DNA from: Candidatus Iainarchaeum sp.
GTDB lineage: Archaea > Iainarchaeota > Iainarchaeia > Iainarchaeales > JAFGBZ01
Direction: 5' to 3'
Length of the DNA: 29,560 nt
Assembly (NCBI GenBank): GCA_016218635.1
Contig: JACRDJ010000095.1
Location: 1-29,560 of the forward strand
This document shows, one piece after another, positions 7,210 to 22,747 of the stretch. The notes under the pieces were generated by a model, which was not told where the DNA came from, did not search any database, and saw only the letters and a list, made by a program, of their open reading frames with translations. Position numbers and translations under genes: made by a program. Position 1 is the first letter of the stretch, and each line of letters opens with the position of its first letter.

Positions 7210-7326
7210 TGATTAGCAGCACCTGGAGGCTCCAAGCAAAGCTCAGCGCCAACCAAAACACTGCCGGCTTAACTTCTGAGTTCGAAAAGGGATCAGGTGT
7301 TTCCCGGCAGCTATGACCGCTAATCA
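7210..7326 (-). rRNA. rrf: 5S ribosomal RNA, stand-alone
   Basis: The minus strand reads TGATTAGCGGTCATAGCTGCCGGGAAACACCTGATCCCTTTTCGAACTCAGAAGTTAAGCCGGCAG...GCTGCTAATCA. It carries the canonical 5S motifs GG-CATAGC, GAAACACC-GATCCC-TT-CGAAC and GAAGTTAAG, and the 8-bp terminal helix I pairs perfectly. Confidence 0.93.
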
Positions 7327-7374: not shown

Positions 7375-7519
7375 TCCGGCGAGTACGGGCATCCCTTTCA
7401 GGGAAGCATGCTCTGCAGGAACCTCAGCGGGTACGGGCATCCCTTTCAGGGAAGCGTGCTTCGCTGGAACTCCGGCGAGTACAGGGACTCCCTTCGGGAG
7501 GCCATGCTTCGCAGAAACC
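7375..7519. repeat. Three imperfect tandem repeats with a 48-bp period, each containing a hairpin
   Basis: GTAC anchors lie at 7383, 7431 and 7479. A 25-nt core GTACGGGCATCCCTTTCAGGGAAGC is identical at 7383-7407 and 7431-7455. The third unit is diverged but keeps a hairpin (CTCCC-TTC-GGGAG). Confidence 0.9.
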
Positions 7520-7529
7520 ATTCATGAAC

Positions 7530-10298: not shown

Positions 10299-10405
10299 TT
10301 CTCCTTTCAGGGAACTTCCGGCTCCTAAAAGTCTGCCATTGAAGTAGATATTTAAAGCTTTGCAGGGCTTTTTATGTACGCTTATTCAGTGGAGTTATTG
10401 CGATT

Positions 10406-11692: not shown

Positions 11693-12505
11693 ATGAGTGA
11701 ACTGTTTAACCGGCTCAACGAACTCATGGTGAAATACGGGTTCCGTCCCCGCAAATCCCTTTCCCAGAATTTTTTGATTGATGCGCGCGTGATTTTGGCG
11801 TTGGTGGAATCCGCCGGTCTTAAACCCTCCGATCGCGTGCTGGAAATCGGCTCCGGAACCGGTTTTCTCACCCAGGAACTCCTTAAGCACTGTCCCGTCA
11901 TCGGCATTGAATCCGACCCCGTGCTGGCGGAACTCTTACGCAAAGAAATCGTTTCGGATTCCTTTGAACTCCTCGAAGGCGATTTTCTGAAACTTTCCCT
12001 GCCTTCGTTCTCCAAAATCGTCTGTGCCCCTCCGTACGGGATTTCCTCGGAATTAATGGGTCGCCTGGGCGGGCTTTCATTTGACTCCGCAGTGATGCTC
12101 CTGCAGTCCGATTTTGTGGCCAAACTCATGAGCTATCCGGGCATGCATGGATACAATGCGGTGAGCGTGATGGCCCAGTACTCGTTTGAACTGGAAGAAG
12201 TGTTCCGGGTTCCCCGGGAGGCCTTCTTTCCCAAGCCCAGCGTGATGACTTCCGGGCTCTTTCTGAAATCCGCGCGCGCGCACGGAACGGCCCGAAATGA
12301 ACCCGCATTCGCGCACTTCATCAAGGAACTCTTCCGCTTCAAGAACAAAAACCTCTCCCGCGCCTTCAAGGACGCGGCTCCCTTCATGGATTTAGGGAAG
12401 AATTCCGTTTCCATTGTTTCCGCCCACCCGCTGGCGGGAAAAAAAGTCATGCAACTCGAAGTCCACGAACTCGTGAACGTCTTCAACGAACTCATGAAAA
12501 AATAA
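11693..12505 (+). CDS. rsmA: 16S rRNA adenine dimethyltransferase RsmA/KsgA/Dim1
   Basis: SQNFL, VLEIGSGTG-LT, IGIESD and F-PKP-V-S motifs, plus synteny. Motif IV reads APPY rather than NxPY. Confidence 0.9.
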   Translation: MSELFNRLNELMVKYGFRPRKSLSQNFLIDARVILALVESAGLKPSDRVLEIGSGTGFLTQELLKHCPVIGIESDPVLAELLRKEIVSDSFELLEGDFLKLSLPSFSKIVCAPPYGISSELMGRLGGLSFDSAVMLLQSDFVAKLMSYPGMHGYNAVSVMAQYSFELEEVFRVPREAFFPKPSVMTSGLFLKSARAHGTARNEPAFAHFIKELFRFKNKNLSRAFKDAAPFMDLGKNSVSIVSAHPLAGKKVMQLEVHELVNVFNELMKK

Positions 12506-12534
12506 AAAAAAGGGGCCCGGAAGGGGGATCCGGG
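12504..12534 (-). terminator. Hairpin plus oligo-T terminator of the lipoprotein pseudogene
   Basis: Stem CCCGGA (12516-12521) / TCCGGG (12529-12534), followed on the minus strand by GCCCC and a T8 run. It closely matches 19141-19175. Confidence 0.65.
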
Positions 12535-12537
12535 AGA

Positions 12538-12916
12538 TTATTTACAGAATGCAGTGGCGGATACAATCCTCGTGTTTGTTTCCGGTGGGTTATACCCGGT
12601 ACAGGTCCAGGAGTCAATGTCAGCTCCTTCTAATCTTCCTACCGAATTACTCCCTCCGGCGCTTCTTGCAGTTGTGTAATCAAAGTTACAATAACCAATC
12701 ACTGCGAACTTTCCAGTTGGACAGGTGGCAGTTACTATGTATAGACGGCCAGGAAGTGCCTGAAAGGACTGAGTCACTACCGGGTATTAGAGAAAATCGC
12801 GCTGGTAGGACTCTTTGATAGCAGGGTTGCTTCCCCCGTGCTTCCTCCCTGTATCTGCGTGCCCCGCTGAGTATGAGCAGTAATGCGAGCGGGGCGGCTA
12901 AAAGTAATTTGTTCAT
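12538..12916 (-). pseudogene. Small Cys-rich secreted lipoprotein broken by two 1-nt deletions; paralogous leader with 19177-19641
   Basis: Frame 1 gives the signal peptide MNKLLLAAPLALLLILSG. Restoring one base (AGC GGG [T]GC ACG, as in the paralogue) gives CTQIQGGSTGEATLLSKSPTSAIFSNT. One more base in ACCCGG joins it to VVTQSFQALPGR...TATCPTGK..IGYC...WTC...ATAFCK*. Confidence 0.75.
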
Positions 12917-13040
12917 TCCTTTCCCTCCTTTTGGGCAGTATCCTTAACGTTTTTTTTGATAAACGTTTCGGTTTATGTAGTGGTTTGGGTTGGAGATTGG
13001 CCCGGTTCGATTCGGTGGGCAATAAAATCAATCAAAATTG

Positions 13041-13098
13041 ACTATAAGTAAACTGCAATATTACTTATACTGAAATACAAGTACTGCAAATATTGTAT
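13041..13098. promoter_or_regulatory. Two related AT-rich palindromes, operator-like
   Basis: TATAAGTAA-actgcaata-TTACTTATA (13043-13069, perfect 9-bp arms) and ATACAA-gtactgcaaata-TTGTAT (13075-13098); both have an ACTGCAA(A)TA centre. Confidence 0.5.
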
Positions 13099-13157
13099 CT
13101 TTTGGTCTGTTTGGTCGTTTCGTTACATTTAAATGGGTTTGAGGGCGTAATGGCTGT

Positions 13158-13538
13158 ATGCGTAAGGAAGTTTTTGACTGGCTGAATGCGGCCGAGGATG
13201 ATCTGCAAACAGCTCAGACACTTTTCTCCCAGGAAATTCATTATGCCTGTGCCTTTTACTGCCAGCAGTCCGCCGAAAAGGCTTTGAAGGCCGTTTACAT
13301 TCTCAAGCAGCGGAAGAGCACGCCGGTTCATAACCTGGTTGCCATTGCAAGGGAGCTGGGCGTACCGGAAGAGATTCTTTCAGCCTGTAGGAAACTGAAC
13401 CCGCACTATATTCAGACCCGTTACCCGGATGCGGCCAATGCGATACCCAAGGATGCCTACGATGAAGAAATTGCAGAAGAACTGCTGGAGAATGCCCGGG
13501 AGGTTTTTGAATGGAGCGAAAAGCAGTCCAGTCCGTAA
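13158..13538 (+). CDS. HEPN-domain protein (toxin of an MNT-HEPN, type VII-like TA pair)
   Basis: W...A..DL..A, YACAFYCQQSAEKALKA, HNL and RYP motifs of small archaeal HEPN proteins. TATA TTTAAAT at 13128-13134. Confidence 0.9.
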   Translation: MRKEVFDWLNAAEDDLQTAQTLFSQEIHYACAFYCQQSAEKALKAVYILKQRKSTPVHNLVAIARELGVPEEILSACRKLNPHYIQTRYPDAANAIPKDAYDEEIAEELLENAREVFEWSEKQSSP

Positions 13539-13825
13539 TCCGAAAGTTTGCCCAATGTCTTCGGAAAGACTTTAAGGATGCCAAGGTCATCTTGTTTGGT
13601 TCAAGGGCCCGAAACGATGCGCTGGCGGACTCTGATTATGATGTCCTGGTAGTCAGTTCGCAGTTTGGGGAAATGAATTTCTTTGAACGCACGGAAAAGA
13701 TGTATGCGTACTGGAATGAACGGGAGTCCCTGGAAGCCCTTTGTTATACGCCGGAAGAATTTCGGGAAAAGTCCGGCCGGATCGGCATTGTAAAAGAAGC
13801 CATCCGGACCGGAATAGCCTTGTAG
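13511..13825 (+). CDS. Minimal nucleotidyltransferase (MNT) antitoxin
   Basis: LFGSRARNDALADSDYD matches GS-x10-DxD, and YTPEEF is present. It overlaps the HEPN gene. Confidence 0.9.
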   Translation: MERKAVQSVIRKFAQCLRKDFKDAKVILFGSRARNDALADSDYDVLVVSSQFGEMNFFERTEKMYAYWNERESLEALCYTPEEFREKSGRIGIVKEAIRTGIAL

Positions 13826-14038
13826 TGTGTTCACTGAACAGCAGTTGTTTTGGTTGGGGTTGCCTTTTAATAAATTATGCATACTATAGTTAGTGACATT
13901 AATTTTTGGACGAAACAGGCAAATACTTTCCCAGGAAAGCCGAATTACTGTGTTTACGGCAGGTATTCAGGAAATGCCTGTCTAATTCTTTTTGTCCTTC
14001 ACTATATGTGAATACGAAATGCATTTGAGGTGATTTTT

Positions 14039-14293
14039 GTGGTGGATGCCCGGGTTTCGCTGAATAAGTATTCAAGTCAGGTTTTGTCGGTGGTGAAGGC
14101 CAGGTATGATTTGAGGGACAAGAGTGCAGCGTTGAATAAGTTTGTTGAGCTGTACGGGGTAAATGAACTGGAACCGGAAGTGGATGAGCAGTACGTAAAG
14201 AAAATCCTTTCCCTGGAGGGTTCGCATCTGAAAAAATACGGGCAAAAGCACACCTCTTTTTCGGATTTGCGAAAAATTGTTGAAGGCGACTGA
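14039..14293 (+). CDS. DUF2683-like antitoxin; the track start is GTG 14030, GTG 14039 preferred after the GAGGTGA RBS
   Basis: VL.VVKA.YDL.DKS.A.N....LEPE....Y.KK pattern; lies directly upstream of a RelE-family toxin. Confidence 0.7.
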   Translation: MVDARVSLNKYSSQVLSVVKARYDLRDKSAALNKFVELYGVNELEPEVDEQYVKKILSLEGSHLKKYGQKHTSFSDLRKIVEGD

Positions 14294-14575
14294 ATGGCTT
14301 TCAGGCACGGGTTTTCCGATGTTTTAAAGGACAAACTCCGGAAGCTTTTCCGCCATGACCGCCGCCGCTATGAACTTCTGATGAAAAAAATGGAGGAAAT
14401 CGCTTCAGCCGATGCAGGGGTGATTGAGCACTACAAAACTCTTCGCTATGATTTAAGCGATCGGAAGCGGGTTCATATTGACCGGAATTTTGTTCTGACT
14501 TTCTCGTTTGACAAGCGAAGCCAGTTCATTCTGTTTTTGAATTTTGATCATCACGACCGGATTTACCGAAGATAG
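14294..14575 (+). CDS. RelE/StbE/YafQ-family addiction module toxin
   Basis: 93 aa and basic, with HYK.LRYDL...KRVHI...FVL.F and DHHD.IY; abuts the antitoxin stop codon. Confidence 0.8.
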   Translation: MAFRHGFSDVLKDKLRKLFRHDRRRYELLMKKMEEIASADAGVIEHYKTLRYDLSDRKRVHIDRNFVLTFSFDKRSQFILFLNFDHHDRIYRR

Positions 14576-14577
14576 CG

Positions 14578-16110
14578 TTATTCCAGTTTTTCGAGGATGA
14601 TTTTTTCCATTTCGATGATGGTCTGGGTTTTCATGTAGTCGTAGGCGGCATCCAGGCGCTGGCGGCTGCCGGAGTAAATGGTGAACACGGGCTGTTCTTT
14701 TCTGAGTTTCTGGCCTTCTTCCACGTGCAGCAGGATTCCGGCATAGGGATCAATGGGGGCTCCGGCCATGCGGGCAATGGTGGTGAGGGCCTTTACGTTG
14801 AGGTTGCTGAGTTCCCCGCTTTGCATGCTGCGGACTTCCTTACGGAATTTGGCAAAAGGAATCTGGTGGGCGGAAACCGGTTTTCCGCCTTGGGCGCGGA
14901 TGATTTCCTTCATTTTGGACAGTGCTTTTCCGGACTGGAGAATATGCAGGGCCATGTCGGTTCCTTTTCCTTTCGGGCTTTTTCCGGCCAGTTCCAGCAG
15001 CACGCCGGAGAGTTCCACGGCTTTTTGGGCGAGGTTGTCGTACACTTTTCCTTCCAGGATTTTGAGCACGTGCTGGGCTTCCAGGGCTGCCCCGAATGCG
15101 GGGCCGCTGGGTTCCATTCCGTTCGTGATGACGGCTTCCACCCGGATTCCGATGCGTTTGCCGACTTCAATGAATTTGCGGGCCAATGATTCCGCTTTTT
15201 CCTGGGTTTTGACCTTGACATCCGGTCCGACCGGAAGGTCAATGACCACATATTGGGCCCCCACGGAGGCCTTTTTGGCCATCACGGAGGCAATGACCTG
15301 TCCTTCGGGGTCGAGGGAAAGCGGGTACTCGATTTTGATGATTTTGTCGTCCGCAGGGGCAAGGTCCACGGCACCGCCCCACGCAATGACTCCGCCGGTT
15401 TTTTGGGTGATTTCGCGGATTTTGGCTAGGGATAAATTCACTGGCGCCAGCACTTCCATGGCGTCCGCGGTTCCGGCAGCGGAAGTGATGGAACGCGAAG
15501 AGGTCTTGGGGATTTTGAGTCCGGTGCTGGCCACGATGGGGACCACGATCATGGTGGCCCGTCCGTTGAGTCCGCCAATGGAGTGCTTGTCCACTATTTT
15601 GCCGGGAATGGACAGTTTTTTTCCGGATCCGATGAGTGCCTTGGTCATGTGCGTGGATTCGTCGAGGTCAAGCCCGTTGATGTAGACGGCGGAAACGAAT
15701 GCGGCGGTTTCAATTTCGCTTAAGTGGTTGGAGGAAATGTCTTCCACAATGGATTTGATTTCTTCCAGGGAGAGTTTCTGGTTATTCATTTTCTTTTTGA
15801 CAAAATCAATGCTTTCAGGGCGTCCTACGGGCCTGACTTCCACGAGGGGGGAGCCGTCCCTGATTCCCAGTTTTTCCTGCACGTCCATGAGCACGCCGAT
15901 TTCATGGCGTTTGAGCACGGAATCATAGCTTAAGTCCACCACGGAAACGGCTTTCTTTTTGTTGCGGGGATAGGTGAGTTCAATGCGTTCAAATGGCTGG
16001 ATTCCCATTTCCTTGGCGTCTGCCTCGTTGAGGTGGCACACCATTTTTCCGGCCTTGATTGGAAGGGGCCGCATGGTGAACCGGAAAACGTAGCCGTCCT
16101 TGGATTTCAT
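14578..16110 (-). CDS. deoA: AMP phosphorylase (archaeal nucleoside-monophosphate phosphorylase, thymidine phosphorylase family)
   Basis: 510 aa with the N-terminal extension typical of AMP phosphorylases. DKHSIGG, PKTSSRSITSAAGTAD.MEVLAPV and WGGAVDLAPADD motifs are present. Confidence 0.93.
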   Translation of the reverse strand: MKSKDGYVFRFTMRPLPIKAGKMVCHLNEADAKEMGIQPFERIELTYPRNKKKAVSVVDLSYDSVLKRHEIGVLMDVQEKLGIRDGSPLVEVRPVGRPESIDFVKKKMNNQKLSLEEIKSIVEDISSNHLSEIETAAFVSAVYINGLDLDESTHMTKALIGSGKKLSIPGKIVDKHSIGGLNGRATMIVVPIVASTGLKIPKTSSRSITSAAGTADAMEVLAPVNLSLAKIREITQKTGGVIAWGGAVDLAPADDKIIKIEYPLSLDPEGQVIASVMAKKASVGAQYVVIDLPVGPDVKVKTQEKAESLARKFIEVGKRIGIRVEAVITNGMEPSGPAFGAALEAQHVLKILEGKVYDNLAQKAVELSGVLLELAGKSPKGKGTDMALHILQSGKALSKMKEIIRAQGGKPVSAHQIPFAKFRKEVRSMQSGELSNLNVKALTTIARMAGAPIDPYAGILLHVEEGQKLRKEQPVFTIYSGSRQRLDAAYDYMKTQTIIEMEKIILEKLE

Positions 16111-16212
16111 GGTTTAATGAATGTCTGTGCCATAATAAATACATTGCCTTTTTTTTAGGGTGGATTATTTAAGGTGTTGGAGGCAGTAATTCTCAGCATT
16201 TGAGGTGACATT

Positions 16213-17535
16213 TTGTCTTTTGGGCTGAATCCGGATTCCCGCGGGCTTTGGATTCTGAAACTGATTTTTATTGCCATTCCTTTGCTGGTGATTGCCAGTT
16301 TTATGCTTCCCCTTTATGCAGTGATGATCGGGGTTAATTTCATTCTGCTTTATCTGACCGTTCTGTTTGTTCTGATTTATCTGCAGAATCCCGAGGAACC
16401 GGCGGTGCGGTCCCTCAATCACACGTATTCACTGGCAGTCCTGGTTCCCTGCTTTAATTCCAAAAACACCATCCGCAAATGCATTTCATCCATTCAGGCC
16501 CTTGCCTATCCGCTGCCGTTCCGCATTATTGTGGCGGATGACGGGAGCACGGATGGAACCCGTGATATGCTCAGGGAAATGAACGGCATTGAATTGCTGG
16601 AGCTTCCCCATCGGGGAAAAGGGTTTGCCCTCAATGACGGGCTGAATCTTATTTCCGAGGAGGCGGTGGTCTGCATTGATTCGGACACCTACCCGGAGCC
16701 GGATGTGCTGATGAAACTGGTGGGCTATCTCGATGACCCGGCCGTGGGGGCCGTGAACGGACGCATTGTTCCGGACCAGCGGAGGACCTTCATTCAGAAA
16801 GTCCAGAACCTGGAGTACCTGATTGCATTCGGTTACTGGCATGCGGTTCTTTCTTCCCTGAATTCCATGTCGTATGTGACCGGACCGCTGACGGTTTTCA
16901 GGCGGAGTGCCCTGCAGACCGTGGGTTATTATTTTGATACCCGGAATCTGGCGGAAGACATGGAGATCGGCCTCCGCCTTCAGGCGCACGGATACAAAAT
17001 AAAAGCCTGCATGCAGGCCTGCTCGGAAACCGATGTTCCGGACTCTCTTCCCAAGCTGGCCAAGCAACGGGACCGCTGGTACCGCAGCCGGGTATACAAT
17101 CTCATTTTGTACCGCCGGCTGTTCTTTAATTCAACCAATCCCGAGCTTGGGTTTTTCGGGCTTCCTTACCTTTTCATGGTTGAGCTGCTGATGATCGTGG
17201 TCCTGCTGCGGGTGACGCTGCTGCTGGCTTCCAGCCTCCTGGAATGGCTGAATTTCGGTTCCATTCTGTTTTTTTCGGGAAACCTTCTCGCCCTGCCGCC
17301 CATTGATCTTACCCTTGAAACCCAGCTTTATTTTTTCATTGCCACCCTGGCGGTTGTTTCGTTTGCCTATTTTCTGGGCCTTCGCCTGGCCGGATACCGG
17401 GTTCAGCGCGATGACCTGCTTCCGCTTTTATTCCAGTTCACGCTTTATCCGTACTTCATTGCGCTCGTGTATTTGCGCGGAATCATCCGCGAAATTCGGG
17501 GGGCCCGGCCAATATGGGAAAGAGTATCTTTTTAG
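16213..17535 (+). CDS. Processive membrane GT2 (cellulose/hyaluronan/PNAG synthase-like)
   Basis: VPCFN, DDGSTD, KG.ALN, DSD, LAED and KQRDRW (D, DxD, ED, QxxRW signature), with flanking TM helices. TTG start after GAGGTGA. Confidence 0.9.
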   Translation: MSFGLNPDSRGLWILKLIFIAIPLLVIASFMLPLYAVMIGVNFILLYLTVLFVLIYLQNPEEPAVRSLNHTYSLAVLVPCFNSKNTIRKCISSIQALAYPLPFRIIVADDGSTDGTRDMLREMNGIELLELPHRGKGFALNDGLNLISEEAVVCIDSDTYPEPDVLMKLVGYLDDPAVGAVNGRIVPDQRRTFIQKVQNLEYLIAFGYWHAVLSSLNSMSYVTGPLTVFRRSALQTVGYYFDTRNLAEDMEIGLRLQAHGYKIKACMQACSETDVPDSLPKLAKQRDRWYRSRVYNLILYRRLFFNSTNPELGFFGLPYLFMVELLMIVVLLRVTLLLASSLLEWLNFGSILFFSGNLLALPPIDLTLETQLYFFIATLAVVSFAYFLGLRLAGYRVQRDDLLPLLFQFTLYPYFIALVYLRGIIREIRGARPIWERVSF

Positions 17536-18152
17536 TGGCAGCCCTGGTGACCGTTGTCATTTTTGCAATAGTTTTCTCGGTGGTGAACCTGCAGGAATCC
17601 TCCATGCGTAACCAGCTTTCCCAGGACATCACCGCACTCTATGAAGACCAGCAGGCGAACAAGATTCTGCAGGCCTATCTGGGCACGCTGGACCCGGACA
17701 CCTGCGTGATTTTCGAGAAACAGATTTCCCGCCAGCTTAACCGCATCTATGACCTCTTCTTCCGGCTTGAATCCCTTCAGGAAAAAACGTTCGTCACTTC
17801 CAGCGACCCCGTCAAACGCCAGTACCTCCTCGCCAGCATGTCGTTATGGATTGACCTCCAGAATGCCTCCAAATACTGCTCCATGAACATAAAGCCGGTT
17901 CTTTACTTTTTTCCCAACCAAAAAGAATGCGCCCTCTGCGATGCCATGGTCACCCAGTTCGAATCCCTCAAAAAAGAATGCCCGAGCGTGCGCATTTTTG
18001 CATTTCCCGCGCAAAGCGATGAATTCGAGTTTTCCGAACTCCTCAAAAAACAGTACGGGGTTTCTTCCGCGCCGGCCATGGTAGTCAAAAACCGGGTGCT
18101 TTATGAGATTGTTCCAATGGAACAATTAAAGAGCCTGGCTGGCTGCACCTGA
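17514..18152 (+). CDS. Membrane-anchored extracellular protein with a C-terminal thioredoxin-like CxxC domain
   Basis: An N-terminal TM, a helical middle region, then VLYFF....CALC and YGVSSAPAMVV. It overlaps the GT2 gene by 22 nt. Confidence 0.65.
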   Translation: MGKSIFLVAALVTVVIFAIVFSVVNLQESSMRNQLSQDITALYEDQQANKILQAYLGTLDPDTCVIFEKQISRQLNRIYDLFFRLESLQEKTFVTSSDPVKRQYLLASMSLWIDLQNASKYCSMNIKPVLYFFPNQKECALCDAMVTQFESLKKECPSVRIFAFPAQSDEFEFSELLKKQYGVSSAPAMVVKNRVLYEIVPMEQLKSLAGCT

Positions 18153-18173
18153 TTCTTGGGATGCGGGATTCTG

Positions 18174-18965
18174 ATGCCTGACTCCGTCAAACGATTCTAC
18201 GAATCCTTTCCTTACCCCTCCAAGCCCATTTTTTCCCGCAAAAACCTCTTCAAGAACGCGCAATGGATTTCCCGCCTGGCGGGCATGGAACCGGATTCTT
18301 TTCCGGAAGGCTCCCGCATCCTGGAAGCCGGCTGCGGTACCGGCGAATTCTCGTGCGGGTTTGCCTTAAGCCCGCATGCGCGGGTCATGGGCGTGGACGT
18401 AAGCAGCGCTTCCCTCCAGATTGCCCGAAGAAACGCCGAAAAATTCGGTTTAATGAACGTTTCGTTTGAGTCTGCCGACGTTCTCAAATTGCCGTTTGAA
18501 AGCGGTTCTTTTGATTACGTTTTCTCGCTGGGATGCATTCATCACACGCAGAATCCCCGCAAGGCTTTCTCGGAACTCTGCCGCGTCACCCGGCCCGGCG
18601 GGGTAGTGGTGGTCGGGGTCTATCACGCGTGGGGGCGGCTGCGTACCCGTCTTGCCGGATTGCTGCTTTCGCTGGCGGTCGCGGATGAAGAAAAACGCCT
18701 TTCACTCGCGCATAAATGGTTTTCTCCGCAGAAAACGTTTTCCGCCCAGCAGCGCATCTGGCTCGCGGACAAATACCTGCATCCACTCGAGCATCACCTG
18801 CTGGTGAACGATTTAAGGCAATGGTTTGCGCAGGAAGGGTTGGAATTCGAGCAGGCGTCGCCCGCCATTCAGAAGCCATTGAGTCTGCTGAATGCCCTGA
18901 AAGCCGATCTCTCCTTCGGACTCCGCCAGGAAAGCTTCATGGTGCTGGCGGGAAGAAAGGCTTAA
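18174..18965 (+). CDS. Class I SAM-dependent methyltransferase; the track start is TTG 18156
   Basis: ILEAGCGTGE, GVDVS, FDYVFSLGCIHHT and RPGG motifs; N-terminal FYESFPYP. Confidence 0.88.
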   Translation: MPDSVKRFYESFPYPSKPIFSRKNLFKNAQWISRLAGMEPDSFPEGSRILEAGCGTGEFSCGFALSPHARVMGVDVSSASLQIARRNAEKFGLMNVSFESADVLKLPFESGSFDYVFSLGCIHHTQNPRKAFSELCRVTRPGGVVVVGVYHAWGRLRTRLAGLLLSLAVADEEKRLSLAHKWFSPQKTFSAQQRIWLADKYLHPLEHHLLVNDLRQWFAQEGLEFEQASPAIQKPLSLLNALKADLSFGLRQESFMVLAGRKA

Positions 18966-18998
18966 ACGGTGTTTTGTTGGTCTATTTGGAAGATTGTT

Positions 18999-19136
18999 AT
19001 GAAAGATCTTAAGGGCAGGTTGTTGAATCCGGGCGTCCGTTTTCATGCTCGTTCGGAAGAGTATGCTTATCGTGAAATCAAGCAAAGGCACGCAATCCGG
19101 ATTAAGGGAATTAACGAACCCGCCCGGAAGACCTGA
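18999..19136 (+). CDS. Possible 45-aa basic small protein
   Basis: Manual translation MKDLKGRLLNPGVRFHARSEEYAYREIKQRHAIRIKGINEPARKT*. It fills the gap between the MTase and the terminator. No family recognised. Confidence 0.3.
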   Translation: MKDLKGRLLNPGVRFHARSEEYAYREIKQRHAIRIKGINEPARKT

Positions 19137-19140
19137 ACCA

Positions 19141-19175
19141 AAAAAAGAAAAGGGGCCCCGGAAAGGGTTTCCGGG
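19141..19175 (-). terminator. Hairpin plus oligo-T terminator of the lipoprotein gene
   Basis: Perfect 8-bp stem CCCGGAAA (19157-19164) / TTTCCGGG (19168-19175), followed on the minus strand by GCCCC and a T-rich tail. Confidence 0.7.
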
Positions 19176-19176
19176 T

Positions 19177-19641
19177 TTACTTACAACAAAGAACCGAGTA
19201 TTCTTCAATAAACCTTGTGTCATATACCGAGCTTATAATTCCCTGTATTGTTCCACTATCCCCGGCCCTAAAGCAGGAAGAAGTTTGTCGGAGTGGATAT
19301 GTGCGGGGCGTGCGTATTGAGTCAATTAAGTTCCCTATTGAAACTATGCCTCCGGTGCAGGTTCCGTTTGTCGATGCATAGAAGTATTCATCAAACCGAT
19401 AACCTTCCAACATTGCGGTTCCCATTCCGGTAGCGGTGCACCTTTGTTGAGCGGTTTCTCCATTAAGCGCGCTGATTGAGTTACACTGCAACCCCTTCAA
19501 CTGGTCAAGGATAGTTGCCTGAACAATCTTTCCACTGGATGGCAACGCAACCGCCTCCCCCGTGCTGTTCCCTCCCTGTATTTGCGTGCACCCGCTTAAT
19601 ATCAGTAATATTCCGATTAATCCGATTCCGACCCATTTCAT
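19177..19641 (-). CDS. Small Cys-rich secreted lipoprotein; the track start is 19647, ATG 19641 preferred from RBS spacing
   Basis: MKWVGIGLIGILLILSG-C signal peptide with lipobox, then a TQIQGGNSTGEA linker. Six further Cys; ends CCK*. Confidence 0.82.
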   Translation of the reverse strand: MKWVGIGLIGILLILSGCTQIQGGNSTGEAVALPSSGKIVQATILDQLKGLQCNSISALNGETAQQRCTATGMGTAMLEGYRFDEYFYASTNGTCTGGIVSIGNLIDSIRTPRTYPLRQTSSCFRAGDSGTIQGIISSVYDTRFIEEYSVLCCK

Positions 19642-19679
19642 TTTCATTCCTCCTTCACGGGAATGAAAGTATAGTGTCT

Positions 19680-19692
19680 GGGGGGGGGGGGG
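19680..19692. repeat. G13 homopolymer (C13 on the lipoprotein sense strand) directly downstream of a TATA-like ATTAATTA
   Basis: Thirteen consecutive G at 19680-19692, the longest G/C homopolymer I noticed in the window. Confidence 0.9.
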
Positions 19693-19799
19693 TAATTAAT
19701 GTTGTGGTATAGTGGTTTGTCTGGCTGAAAGCCGGTTAGTGGCCAGTGGCCTGTTAAGTTTATATATGATTGTATACATCTGTATATTTAGGTGAATTT

Positions 19800-20030
19800 A
19801 TGGATACAACGACCTTGCGGGTGGAACGGGAACTGAAATTGGATTTGGATGAACTTAAGAGTACGAAGAATGAGAGTTATGCGGATGTGATCCGGCGCCT
19901 TGTCCGGATTGCCAAAGAGGAAAATGCTTTGTCCAAGGATGAAATCCGCCAGATTGAGGATTCACTTAAGGACCTTAAGGCCGGCCGTGTGCTCAGCCTC
20001 AAAGAGGCCGAACAGAAGTGGGGCATCTGA
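19800..20030 (+). CDS. Ribbon-helix-helix-type antitoxin; the track start is 19770, ATG 19800 preferred after GGTGA
   Basis: MDTTTLRVE..LK.DLD.LK....ESY.DVIRRLV N-terminus and acidic C-terminus ending GRV.SL.E. TATA TTTATATAT at 19759-19767 and a TGTATACA palindrome at 19771-19778. Confidence 0.75.
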   Translation: MDTTTLRVERELKLDLDELKSTKNESYADVIRRLVRIAKEENALSKDEIRQIEDSLKDLKAGRVLSLKEAEQKWGI

Positions 20031-20031
20031 A

Positions 20032-20286
20032 TTGTTTGAGTTGCTGGTCACGGAACGCTTCGCGAAGGAGCTGAAAAAGCTTCAGTCTTCGGAACGGGAG
20101 CGGATTAAGGAAAAATCAAGGGTTTCTCAGGAAAACCCGCTTCTTTTTTTTGAGCGGCTTACCGGGAATGAATTGTTCAAACTGCGGGTGGGTTCTTTCC
20201 GGGTGATTGCACTCATTCATTTTGGAAAGAAAACGATTACGGCACTCTCGGTAGGGCTCCGAAAAAATGTTTATGATAAGCTATAA
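20032..20286 (+). CDS. RelE/ParE-family toxin (TTG start)
   Basis: FELLVTERFAKELKKL, FKLRVGSFRVI and VGLRKNVY, the typical RelE pattern, 1 nt after the antitoxin stop. Confidence 0.85.
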   Translation: MFELLVTERFAKELKKLQSSERERIKEKSRVSQENPLLFFERLTGNELFKLRVGSFRVIALIHFGKKTITALSVGLRKNVYDKL

Positions 20287-20307
20287 ACTCATTTTCTTCT
20301 GCCGCAT

Positions 20308-21519
20308 TTAATTCCCGGTTTTGAGTGCCACTACGGGGTCGAGTTTGGCTGCCTGGATGGCGGGGTAGGTTCCGGCAACCATGCCGATGATGGCTGCAAA
20401 CAAGGGGGCTCCGGCAATGAGGGCGGGGTTAAGGATTAAGGGGATGGCGAACCCGTTTTGGGTGGCGATGAGGGAAATGACGGCGGTGAAAATGTAGCCC
20501 AGAATGGTTCCCAGGATTCCTCCCACCAACCCGATGGTTCCGGCTTCAATCAGGAACAGGGTGCGGATCTGGTTGTGGGTTGCTCCGATGGCTTTCATGA
20601 GTCCGATTTCGGATGTGCGTTGGATGACGCTCATGATCATGGTGTTCATGATGCCGATTCCGCCGACCACCAATGAAATGGCGGCGATTCCCACGAGCAC
20701 CAGCTGAACAATGTTCAGGACCGCAAAAGCGGTTTCCGCGATACTGTCCGCGGACATGACAGCGAAGTCTTCTTCTCCGTGCGCGCGCTTGAGCTGGGTC
20801 CTGATTTTTTCCTTGACGGATTCGTTGAGGGACTGGTCCTGGGTTTTCACCAGGATGCGGGAGGGTTGCAGGGTTCCGATGAGTTCCTTGAAGGTTTTGC
20901 TGTTAATGAATGCGGCGCTGTCATAGATTCCCCCGAACGACCCCTGGGAGCCTTTGTTGGTTCCGACGATTTTAAAGGAGTGGCCCGGCATTTCCATTTT
21001 CTGCCTGGCCGTCAGCGGGTCGGCGAACACTTTTTCCGCCACGTTTTTTCCAAGGAGGACTGCGTATTGGTCGGCGTCGCTGAGAACCCTTCCTTCATTG
21101 ATGTCCATGATTCCCACCTGTTCCAGCTGGGGCTGGTCGGAGGGATTGATTCCGACCAGGAGCAGGGTCTTGTTTTCGGATTTCACGGTGGACTGGGCGG
21201 TCGAGTAGTAGAGGGGAACGGCGAACGCCACGCCGGGGATGGCTTTATTGCGTTCGGGGTCTTTTTCCTGCAGTTTGGTGATCAGGGAGGTGCTGAATCC
21301 GCTTCCGGGAATCACGATGAGGGTATTGGATCCGATTTTTTCAAACTGCTGGTTGATGGAGGAATTCAGCCCTTCTCCGGCCGAAATGAGGGTTACGATG
21401 GCCGCGATTCCTACAATGATTCCCAGTAATGTGAGCGTGCTGCGAAGTTTCTGGCTCTTGAGGTCACGGATCGCATTCCCCAGCACTTCGGTGACGTCGG
21501 TGAACGAGTATCCGATCAT
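20308..21519 (-). CDS. MacB/FtsX-family ABC transporter permease (copy 2)
   Basis: RS.LT.LGIIVGIAAIV, a large extracellular domain, GGIGIMNTM..SV.QRT.EIGLMKAIGA and PA..AAKLDPV.AL. Confidence 0.92.
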   Translation of the reverse strand: MIGYSFTDVTEVLGNAIRDLKSQKLRSTLTLLGIIVGIAAIVTLISAGEGLNSSINQQFEKIGSNTLIVIPGSGFSTSLITKLQEKDPERNKAIPGVAFAVPLYYSTAQSTVKSENKTLLLVGINPSDQPQLEQVGIMDINEGRVLSDADQYAVLLGKNVAEKVFADPLTARQKMEMPGHSFKIVGTNKGSQGSFGGIYDSAAFINSKTFKELIGTLQPSRILVKTQDQSLNESVKEKIRTQLKRAHGEEDFAVMSADSIAETAFAVLNIVQLVLVGIAAISLVVGGIGIMNTMIMSVIQRTSEIGLMKAIGATHNQIRTLFLIEAGTIGLVGGILGTILGYIFTAVISLIATQNGFAIPLILNPALIAGAPLFAAIIGMVAGTYPAIQAAKLDPVVALKTGN

Positions 21520-21520
21520 G

Positions 21521-22717
21521 TTATTCGTACCTCAATGCGTTGACGGGGTCGAGTTCGGCGGCCCGGCGGGCGGGAATGAACCCGGAAACGATTCCGACGC
21601 CGGATGCGAACGCGAAAATGCCGGCCACGGATAATGCGGAAATGGTCAGGTCCAGTTCAATGCCCTGCGCACGGGCTACTGTTGAAATGATGAGCGAGAA
21701 GAGGTAACCGATGCAAACTCCGATGATTCCTCCGAGCAGTCCGATGGTGGCGGCTTCGATGAGGAAAAGCGTCTGGATTTGGGTATGGGTTGCCCCGATG
21801 GCTTTCATGAGTCCGATTTCCTGGGTTCGTTGGATGACGCTCATGATCATGGTGTTCATGATGCCGATTCCGCCCACCAGGAGCGAGATTCCGGCAATGC
21901 CGAGCAGGAAGAGCTGGATGATTCCAAGCACGTTTTTGGCGGTGTCAAGGAGCTGGGCCGCGGAAAGAAGGTAGAAGTCTTTTTCCCCGTGCGCGCGTTC
22001 CAGGCGGTCTTCCATGCGGGCCGAGACGCTGCCGATGAGGTCTTTGTCGGCAACCGTGACCGCGATTTCAGTCGGGTTTTTTTCCCCGAACAGTTCTTTC
22101 ACGGTGTCGGAAGGCATGAAGGCGATGTTGGTGATCAGTCCGCCGCCGATGGCCTGGGATGGTTTGGAGATTCCGGCAATCCTGAATTTTTTTCCCTTCA
22201 TTTCCACTTTTTCGCGCAGTTGCAGGGGGTTCTTGAATGCGTCTTTCGCGAAGGAATCATAGATGACCATGGCGTATTTGTCGCCTGGGGAAAGATTTCT
22301 GCCTTCCTGGATGTTCACGTATCCGGTTCGTTCCAGTTCCGCGAAATCGTTTCCGTTGACGCCGACAATGAACAGGGTGCTGGATTCGTTTCCGCGCGTG
22401 ATGGTGCCGGAGGTTTCATATAATGGAAAAACGGACTGGACTCCGGGAATGGATTCAATGATGGAGATGTCTTTTTCCCGCAGCTTGGCGAGGGCGCTGG
22501 TGATGAAGTTTTCGGCGGAGCCGGGCTCCACCATCACGGTGTTCAGGCCGATGGACTGGAACTGTTTTTCAACGGCCGTATTAAGCCCTTGCCCCAGTGA
22601 AACCAGCACCATGATGGTGGTGATTCCGATGATGACGCCCAGAATGGTGAGGTAACTGCGGAGTCCTTGGCTTAACGTATTGCGGACGGCGATGCCGGCC
22701 AAATCCAGCAGGTTCAT
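21521..22717 (-). CDS. MacB/FtsX-family ABC transporter permease (copy 1)
   Basis: Same architecture and motifs as copy 2, ending PARRAAELDPVNALRYE. Confidence 0.92.
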   Translation of the reverse strand: MNLLDLAGIAVRNTLSQGLRSYLTILGVIIGITTIMVLVSLGQGLNTAVEKQFQSIGLNTVMVEPGSAENFITSALAKLREKDISIIESIPGVQSVFPLYETSGTITRGNESSTLFIVGVNGNDFAELERTGYVNIQEGRNLSPGDKYAMVIYDSFAKDAFKNPLQLREKVEMKGKKFRIAGISKPSQAIGGGLITNIAFMPSDTVKELFGEKNPTEIAVTVADKDLIGSVSARMEDRLERAHGEKDFYLLSAAQLLDTAKNVLGIIQLFLLGIAGISLLVGGIGIMNTMIMSVIQRTQEIGLMKAIGATHTQIQTLFLIEAATIGLLGGIIGVCIGYLFSLIISTVARAQGIELDLTISALSVAGIFAFASGVGIVSGFIPARRAAELDPVNALRYE

Positions 22718-22747
22718 GGAGCACGCATACCTTGATTGATTGGCCGG

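Follow-up and report, generated by a model that had tools for sequence, protein, structure and literature searches.

In the pilE/pilS system of Neisseria and in vlsE of Borrelia, one expression site and many silent cassettes are required. The UHB/Erp lipoprotein genes of Borrelia share a leader peptide and give rise to mosaics by recombination among paralogues, while lpl of Staphylococcus aureus represents a tandem cluster of lipoprotein paralogues. Toxin-antitoxin (TA) modules in genomic islands and superintegron cassettes are regarded as stabilisers of accessory DNA. In the Vsp/Vpma lipoprotein genes of Mycoplasma, the 5′ untranslated region (UTR) and the signal-peptide-coding region are highly conserved and the mature parts show little or no homology (PMC2268961). 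For the UHB or Erp-OspE/F lipoprotein genes of Borrelia burgdorferi, a common promoter region with differing mature parts is described in PMC7002432, which cites Marconi 1996, and according to PMC2568036 the unit of evolution in a tandem lipoprotein paralogue cluster runs from the 3′ end of one gene across the intergenic region into the 5′ end of the following gene. Here, we present a computational analysis of five lipoprotein-type genes of an archaeon, two of which (genes A and B) are located 6.6 kb apart, with housekeeping genes between them, in a DNA stretch of 29,560 nt referred to as the window.

DPANN archaea have tiny genomes, and many of them rely on contact with other cells. To our knowledge, the origin and diversification of their surface proteins are poorly understood. 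The window represents contig C57 of an assembly of 913,975 bp in 169 contigs that is 76% complete, and its source is an Iainarchaeia (DPANN) archaeon from groundwater. The AMP phosphorylase encoded in the window is 58-61% identical to proteins from metagenome-assembled genomes (MAGs) of Candidatus Iainarchaeum or Diapherotrites, and 79% of the sampled words of the region are present in one groundwater metagenome run. An original prediction, made from the sequence of the window, had proposed that A and B belong to a dispersed family with conserved ends and unrelated cores, that each such gene is paired with TA modules, and that their cores are swapped by recombination.

The five genes form a family with sharply bounded modules, in which gene A is a mosaic within inserted DNA and most members adjoin TA genes. 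On balance, we favour the explanation that this family is lineage-specific and encodes exported, probably lipid-anchored, disulfide-rich surface proteins, the genes of which reside in accessory islets and have ends that evolve in concert. A shared expression-and-export module, comprising an upstream motif, a TATA-like box, a Shine-Dalgarno (SD) site, a lipobox signal peptide and an STGEA-type linker, precedes each body. Homologous recombination or gene conversion among paralogues would copy the ends from gene to gene and keep them alike, and between the ends lie unrelated orphan domains or ones whose divergence has reached saturation. The genes reside in small low-GC islets that also gather TA pairs and a miniature inverted-repeat transposable element (MITE). 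We infer gene conversion as the mechanism, and the proteins may have a role in cell-cell or virus interaction.

The likeness to Vsp/Vpma consists in a conserved 5′ UTR and signal peptide ahead of otherwise unrelated coding sequence in genes for lipobox lipoproteins. However, Vsp/Vpma genes are clustered beside a Xer-type recombinase with sites in the 5′ UTR, include one promoter-bearing gene and have repetitive mature parts, whereas the genes studied here are dispersed over four contigs of an archaeal genome with no recombinase nearby, possess a promoter-like region each and show no tandem repeats in their cores (TRF). With the Borrelia UHB genes they have in common a shared promoter region ahead of differing mature parts, but those genes lie on cp32 prophage plasmids and TA neighbours are not part of their pattern; here, neither a prophage context nor a sequence relationship was seen. 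Conserved ends and variable centres explained by recombination among paralogues are also a feature of the tandem clusters, where the unit spans adjacent genes; in contrast, our genes are dispersed and their ends are conserved separately. The pilE/pilS and vlsE systems likewise have conserved flanks around variable segments, but no silent copy was found here. As in superintegrons and islands with TA modules, the inserted low-GC DNA contains a mixture of small accessory genes and TA pairs from several families, yet both an integron integrase and attC sites are absent.

Shared 5′ module and 3′ ends

In the 914-kb genome, five genes carry the shared 5′ module: A and B in the window and one each on contigs C72 (9846-10283), C44 (1268-1786) and C102 (4378-4752). 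B and the C72 and C44 genes belong to type 2 (MKW.GIGLIGILL.LSGCTQ), A and the C102 gene to type 1 (MNKLLL.AP.ALLLILSGCTQ). The dispersed family of the original prediction was thus recovered, and signal peptide features, namely a basic n-region and a hydrophobic h-region, are evident from the translations. The L-S-G-C lipobox is present in B, C72, C44 and C102. The lipobox LLILSG(C) had been claimed for both A and B; it is intact in B, but in A the cysteine was lost by a 1-nt deletion. Moreover, lipoboxes of the LSGC type occur in about 20 or more genes of the genome, so that the lipobox alone is no marker of the family. The protein encoded by gene B combines the LLILSGC lipobox with an NST sequon, a 6-Cys core and a CCK end. 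Judged by such sequence features, the family proteins would be lipidated, located at the surface and stabilised by disulfides. Lipobox proteins and the lipidation enzyme AliA (arCOG02177), the latter with gaps, have been reported for DPANN archaea (PMC12462473).

The module boundaries are sharp. Sliding identity between B and C72 amounts to 87-97% from position -49 to +86 and then drops to about 40%, and the same block is shared by B and C44, giving 77-97% over this range among the three genes. The block covers promoter-proximal DNA, the 5′ UTR, the signal peptide and the linker; by blastn, the 5′ block of gene B is 89.6% identical to C72 over 135 nt and 81% identical to C44 over 134 nt. Between A and B, the DNA encoding TQIQGG(N)STGEA, noted as near-identical in the original prediction, reaches an identity of 80% across 60 nt, with an E-value of 6e-6 when searched genome-wide. 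The AAGGAGG sequence 7 nt before ATG was confirmed in both genes, with ATG 12916 in A and the second ATG, 19641, in B. The upstream 10-mer CAAACCACTA common to both genes has exactly two occurrences in the genome, 71-72 nt upstream of the first ATGs of A and B.

With respect to the 3′ ends, A, B and C72 have in common a C-K-stop and, after it, a hairpin with a T-run; in A and B, this GC hairpin follows 1-3 nt past the stop, as had been described. Alignment of the 62-nt 3′ flanks of A and B yielded a score of 28, the best of about 1100 gene 3′ flanks; the maximum among 20,000 random flank pairs was 23. A CCGGA...TCCGG hairpin with T-run directly after the stop occurs genome-wide at A and B only. 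A generic terminator as explanation was rejected because of this restricted pattern and the rank of the A-B flanks. It is also extremely improbable that the resemblance as a whole is generic, in the sense that any lipoprotein signal, SD site and terminator of this genome would look alike: LSGC(TQ) lipoboxes are found in 20 or more genes, AAGGAGG occurs 89 times and hairpin terminators with T-runs follow other genes too, but blastn E-values of 6e-6 to 3e-46, the rank of the 3′ flanks and the unique 10-mer are far above the genome background. A search for further copies with the leader, which the original prediction had called for, led to the five genes within the genome, but gave no match to the leader DNA patterns in JGI metagenome contigs (two scans) and IMG/VR.

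Orphan cores and the mosaic gene A

Four unrelated orphan cores are distributed among the five genes, and only B and C72 are homologous (44-46% identity overall and about 27-30% in the cores, z = 8.5, with shared Cys positions, an STNGTC motif and CCK as the last residues of either protein). All other core pairs were indistinguishable from shuffled sequences. For the 4-Cys core of A and the 6-Cys core of B, z was 0.0, and hhalign of A against the B/C72 profile aligned the leader only, without core similarity. The earlier description of the A and B cores as unrelated was thus borne out at the sequence level. None of the five proteins has a match in Pfam. Among 5.8e9 proteins, gene B has no relatives but itself and the C72 paralogue; 40 related genomes contained signal-peptide-level matches only, and the ESM Atlas gave no meaningful match (0.76). 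No word-based match was found for gene A. In a full HMMER search against 1.84e9 representatives, its three matches turned out to be repeat artefacts (Ig-domain, MBG-domain and low-complexity proteins), and unnamed bacterial clusters of 75-90 aa in the ESM Atlas at 0.92-0.93, but with a recognition value below the reliable range, provide a lead only. A search of 150 genomes of the order recovered neither the C44 core nor the C102 core, save for a weak stop-containing match to C44.

A homologue of the C44 core with 59% identity, P0009, is encoded on a 4.8-kb contig from the same metagenome. This contig stems from a second, related organism in the same sample, in which the C44-type core is joined to another lipoprotein signal: the signal peptide of P0009 (lipobox LVAC) and its linker both differ from those of C44. 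The downstream neighbourhoods of P0009 and C44 are similar. Within its own genome, C44 agrees with B and C72 at about 90% over the first 30 residues. A leader that differs in P0009 while that of C44 matches B and C72 points to homogenisation within the genome or to replacement of the module. On the contig of P0009 (a Logan contig of SRR12113407), a weak HicA match is located two genes upstream and an intein-containing gene of 872 aa downstream.

In same-residue codons of B and C72, synonymous differences were counted at 9/32 positions of the leader versus 25/32 of the core (chi-square about 16). The lower divergence of the leader indicates either that it arose later than the core or that its DNA sequence is under constraint, and the synonymous saturation of the B and C72 cores indicates that these cores are old. 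Taken together, the sharp drop in identity, the synonymous contrast between leader and core and the contrast between C44 and P0009 show that movement or homogenisation of the 5′ module is independent of the cores. These data also bear on the possibility that all members arose by duplication of a single ancestor, with ends under purifying selection, cores under diversifying selection as in conotoxins, and no recombination between members. The cores of B and C72 can still be aligned, at an identity of about 27-30%, and agree in Cys positions and in the STNGTC motif; this would be in line with such a descent, as would the C-K-stop retained in three members. We nevertheless regard it as unlikely, as selection on the protein would not by itself be expected to produce the synonymous contrast, the identity of 77-97% extends to the non-coding 5′ UTR, the C44 core homologue in another organism bears a different leader, and leaders of two types are joined in gene A.

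The make-up of gene A is that of a mosaic: the promoter and signal start are of the C102 type, the lipobox and linker of the B type, the core is its own and the 3′ end is again of the B type. Its similarity to C102 amounts to 72% over 128 nt (blastn, E 9.5e-10) and to 77-87% at -60 to -20, whereas at +27 to +85 the sliding identity is 70-87% with B and down to 37-50% with C102. Gene A had been taken for an ordinary gene, but two 1-nt deletions split it into three frames and make it a pseudogene (Table 1). The first deletion removes the T of the lipobox Cys codon (TGC to GC), and the second falls within 12780-12786. Both were reproduced, with no gap, in an independent Logan contig that spans 12717-13254 and is identical there; since this contig was assembled independently, the deletions were not introduced by the MAG assembler. 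The frame of the 79-codon core is still open, which suggests that the gene decayed recently.

In the shared 5′ UTR of type 2, RNAalifold predicted a 9-bp hairpin (window 19645-19672, minus strand), in which UUCAUUCC pairs with the SD site and the first AUG (GGAGGAAUG), at the same place in B, C72 and C44; the three sequences are too alike for covariation. The predicted hairpin could mask translation initiation. Upstream of it, between the TATA-like box and the conserved 5′ UTR, the poly-C length is 13 in B, 8 in C72 (about 10316-10323) and 3 in C44 (CTCCC); this run had been marked as a possible phase-variation tract.

Accessory islets and toxin-antitoxin neighbours

Table 1. Features of genes A and B and of their islets (positions in the window)
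Feature	Position	Strand	Remarks
Lipoprotein gene A, pseudogene	12538-12916	minus	Two 1-nt deletions, three frames
Gene A, frame 1	12863-12916	minus	Signal peptide to LLILSG; ATG at 12916
Gene A, frame 2	12780-12860	minus	TQIQGG-STGEA linker
Gene A, frame 3	12541-12777	minus	4-Cys core ending FCK, 79 codons; stop 12538-12540
Gene A, terminator	12504-12534	minus	Hairpin (6-bp stem, 12516-12534), then CCCC and T-run; 3 nt past stop
Gene A, upstream region	12917-12987	minus	Type-1 5′ module common to A and C102; 10-mer 12978-12987, TATA-like run 12950-12963, SD AAGGAGG 12924-12930
Gene A, lipobox and linker block	12829-12884	minus	Mosaic junction; resembles B (19553-19609) and C72, not C102
Islet A	12506-14577		2,072-nt low-GC insertion between convergent ksgA (11693-12505) and AMP phosphorylase gene (14578-16110)
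HEPN/MNT-type nucleotidyltransferase TA pair	13158-13825	plus	HEPN 13158-13538, nucleotidyltransferase 13511-13825; head-to-head with A
MITE-like repeat, 122 nt	13885-14006		Imperfect terminal inverted repeats TATAGT...ACTATA (TATAGTTAGTGAC ... GTCCTTCACTATA)
Second TA pair of islet A	14030-14575	plus	87-aa putative antitoxin (14030-14293), 93-aa YafQ/RelE-like toxin (14294-14575)
Islet B	18966-20307		Low-GC stretch between methyltransferase gene (18156-18965) and FtsX-like permease gene (20308-21519)
Gene B, terminator	19141-19175	minus	Hairpin (8-bp stem), then CCCC and T-run; 1 nt past stop; 80% identical to A copy
Lipoprotein gene B, intact	19177-19641	minus	154 aa from SD-spaced ATG 19641; SD AAGGAGG 19649-19655, 7 nt before this ATG; further ATG upstream at 19647
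Gene B, type-2 5′ module	19553-19719	minus	Part 19553-19687 conserved with C72 and C44; farther upstream poly-C13 19680-19692, TATA-like AT-rich run 19693-19702, 10-mer 19710-19719
RHH-like antitoxin and ParE/RelE-like toxin	19770-20286	plus	Antitoxin 19770-20030, toxin about 20020-20286; head-to-head with B

Islet A is an insertion into a conserved housekeeping junction. In 10 Iainarchaeia loci, ksgA directly adjoins the AMP phosphorylase gene or overlaps with it, and in five more the two are separated by 58-650 nt, so that the claim that gene A interrupts housekeeping context was borne out. The GC content of the islet is 0.40-0.50 versus 0.52-0.58 in the flanking genes. It harbors gene A, the hairpin-terminator of which abuts the ksgA stop codon, the HEPN/MNT pair, the MITE-like repeat and the YafQ/RelE-like pair. 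Six full copies of the repeat, 99-100% identical, were detected on six contigs (besides the window, C138:884-1005, C107:6596-6717, C149:3782-3903, C144:1951-2075 and C72:5685-5806), in addition to one truncated by a contig end (C69:1-57). The repeat is predicted to fold into a long hairpin (-33 kcal/mol), and no transposase partner was identified for it.

Islet B has a GC content of 0.46-0.49 versus about 0.55-0.59 in its flanks. Synteny around islet B is not conserved in relatives: the ABC-transporter genes around gene B are kept in a relative of the same family, but the far side differs. These surroundings include tandem FtsX-like permease paralogues (20308-22730) with DNA blocks 72-80% identical at a spacing of 1210 nt, and this tandem pair is also present in the same-family relative. 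A membrane-anchored protein encoded at a distance of about 1 kb from gene B (17514-18152) contains a C-A-L-C motif, gives a weak thioredoxin-like match and constitutes a candidate oxidoreductase for disulfides of exported Cys-rich proteins. Rfam and tRNA scans of the window revealed nothing but a 5S rRNA gene (7211-7324; Rfam, 66.6 bits), which adjoins three 48-nt tandem repeats (7379-7522).

The head-to-head TA operons that had been recognised next to A (HEPN-MNT) and B (RHH-RelE) were supported by profile matches. The pair beside A matches HEPN PF05168 (3.2e-28) and PF01909 (NTP_transf_2; 1e-13), with a weak MntA match. The antitoxin beside B is similar to DUF7557 (1.1e-5) and VapB (4e-3), and its toxin partner matches ParE_toxin at 1.3e-4, just under the Pfam cut-off (22.9 versus 23 bits). 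In the second pair of islet A, the toxin matches TIGR00053 (YafQ-like; 8.9e-11, below the curated cut-off), and a weak DUF2683 match was also obtained for this pair. Outside the window, the C72 gene is neighboured by HicB-HicA (HicA 5.5e-13, HicB 2.6e-9) and the C102 gene, in tail-to-tail orientation, by a ParE/YoeB-like toxin (1e-3, under the Pfam cut-off); the C44 gene is without a TA neighbour. Beyond a GAPDH gene, 1-2.5 kb from the C72 lipoprotein gene, further HicB, HicA and ParE-like toxin genes, the last with an upstream partner, were observed (C72:7583-8730).

For a toxin census, 25 toxin genes were located by Pfam profiles and inspection. A position within 700 nt of a toxin gene was found for 4/5 family genes versus about 6% of roughly 1100 crude gene calls (binomial P about 7e-5), in accordance with the predicted enrichment beside TA genes, and for about 2/21 other lipobox genes. 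In each of the four family genes, the distance to the toxin gene is no more than 500 nt. The TA families beside A, B, C72 and C102 all differ (HEPN-MNT, RHH-ParE, HicBA and ParE/YoeB-like), and segmental duplication is therefore not the explanation of the association. Most likely, the association reflects shared residence in insertion-tolerant spots, and the TA pairs possibly add some stabilising effect on the islets.

The lipoproteins could also be thought of as working partners of the adjacent TA pairs, for example as the membrane effector or sensor of a module with three components that serves defence or the stress response, as three members are head-to-head with TA operons and have short intergenic regions in common. 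We consider this very unlikely. The TA family is a different one at each locus and the lipoprotein cores differ as well, C44 has no TA neighbour and the TA gene of C102 is tail-to-tail, gene A has decayed although the reading frames of its two TA pairs are still open, and the same core with the same TA family was not found as a conserved pair in other genomes.

Evidence on core switching and biological meaning

Both islets were compared with the 914-kb assembly by blastn. Matches were limited to the shared leader blocks and the MITE, and no silent or promoterless core copies were found in this 76% complete genome. No site-specific recombinase is located near any member; a single tyrosine recombinase occurs in the genome, on C31, and no serine recombinase was found. 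The genome has no PF00078 match for a reverse transcriptase, and with neither a reverse transcriptase nor a template-like repeat of the cores there is no sign of a diversity-generating retroelement. The population check was based on Logan contigs only, all from one run at a depth of about 4-6x, in which rare variants are dropped; no alternative alleles or variant junctions were seen in them, with gene B and the poly-C barely covered. Differences at 19599-19632 were rejected as alleles, as the respective contigs belong to the C72 and C44 paralogues.

These results are to be considered together with the proposal of active cassette exchange, in which the end blocks would act as recombination handles and the cores would be swapped at fixed loci on ecological time scales, held in place by TA modules, for antigenic or host-range variation. 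Conserved ends on both sides of unrelated cores in A and B, the mosaic structure of gene A, the TA adjacency of 4/5 genes and the poly-C length of 13, 8 and 3 among paralogues would all be compatible with it. However, the assembled genome holds no silent or promoterless cores, there is neither a recombinase nearby nor a reverse transcriptase, the members number only 3-5 including a double-frameshift pseudogene, the contigs (about 4-6x, rare variants dropped) contain no alternative alleles, and the synonymous saturation of the B and C72 cores speaks for old, stable cores. Active exchange is thus distinctly improbable in our assessment. Of the core swapping by recombination that had originally been put forward, recombination between members is visible, but machinery or stores for the exchange of cores did not come to light. 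No result of this study shows antigen switching.

Several points weigh against the family of concertedly evolving ends that we favour. The genome is one fragmented MAG (169 contigs, 76% complete), and its copy number of family genes is a lower bound. The conserved blocks are short: those at the 5′ end measure 60-135 nt, those at the 3′ end about 45 nt. Because the 3′ flank of B is unlike that of its C72 paralogue, a 3′ module is secure for A and B alone. The low synonymous divergence of the leaders could reflect selection on the mRNA, for which an SD-pairing hairpin is predicted. Concerning structure, the predicted fold of the A core is a moderate all-beta model with five strands (pLDDT 64, pTM 0.51) that has no fold match among the AlphaFold DB clusters (best E 0.6), and the prediction for gene B is unusable (pLDDT 32). 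Finally, the TA statistic is post hoc and relies on crude gene calls and five genes.

A more far-reaching idea is a portable kit of DPANN archaea, by which small new or foreign domains would be put on the cell surface and exchanged between loci, in islets that physically linked TA pairs would guard against loss. Its head may consist of promoter, SD site, lipobox signal and linker, and its tail of C-K-stop and hairpin terminator. We see only a slim chance that this holds, but if true, the kit would amount to an archaeal equivalent of the variable-lipoprotein systems of bacteria, and one that works without a recombinase.

A new switching mechanism is not established by this locus. What it offers is a testable archaeal case of an export-and-anchor module that would evolve in concert across unrelated orphan genes, together with a precisely bounded insertion, comprising a lipoprotein gene, TA pairs and a MITE, at a housekeeping junction that is conserved in relatives, and a non-random link of lipoprotein genes with TA modules. 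In addition, the proteins of this family are candidate substrates of the lipoprotein pathway (AliA) that was recently discovered in archaea.

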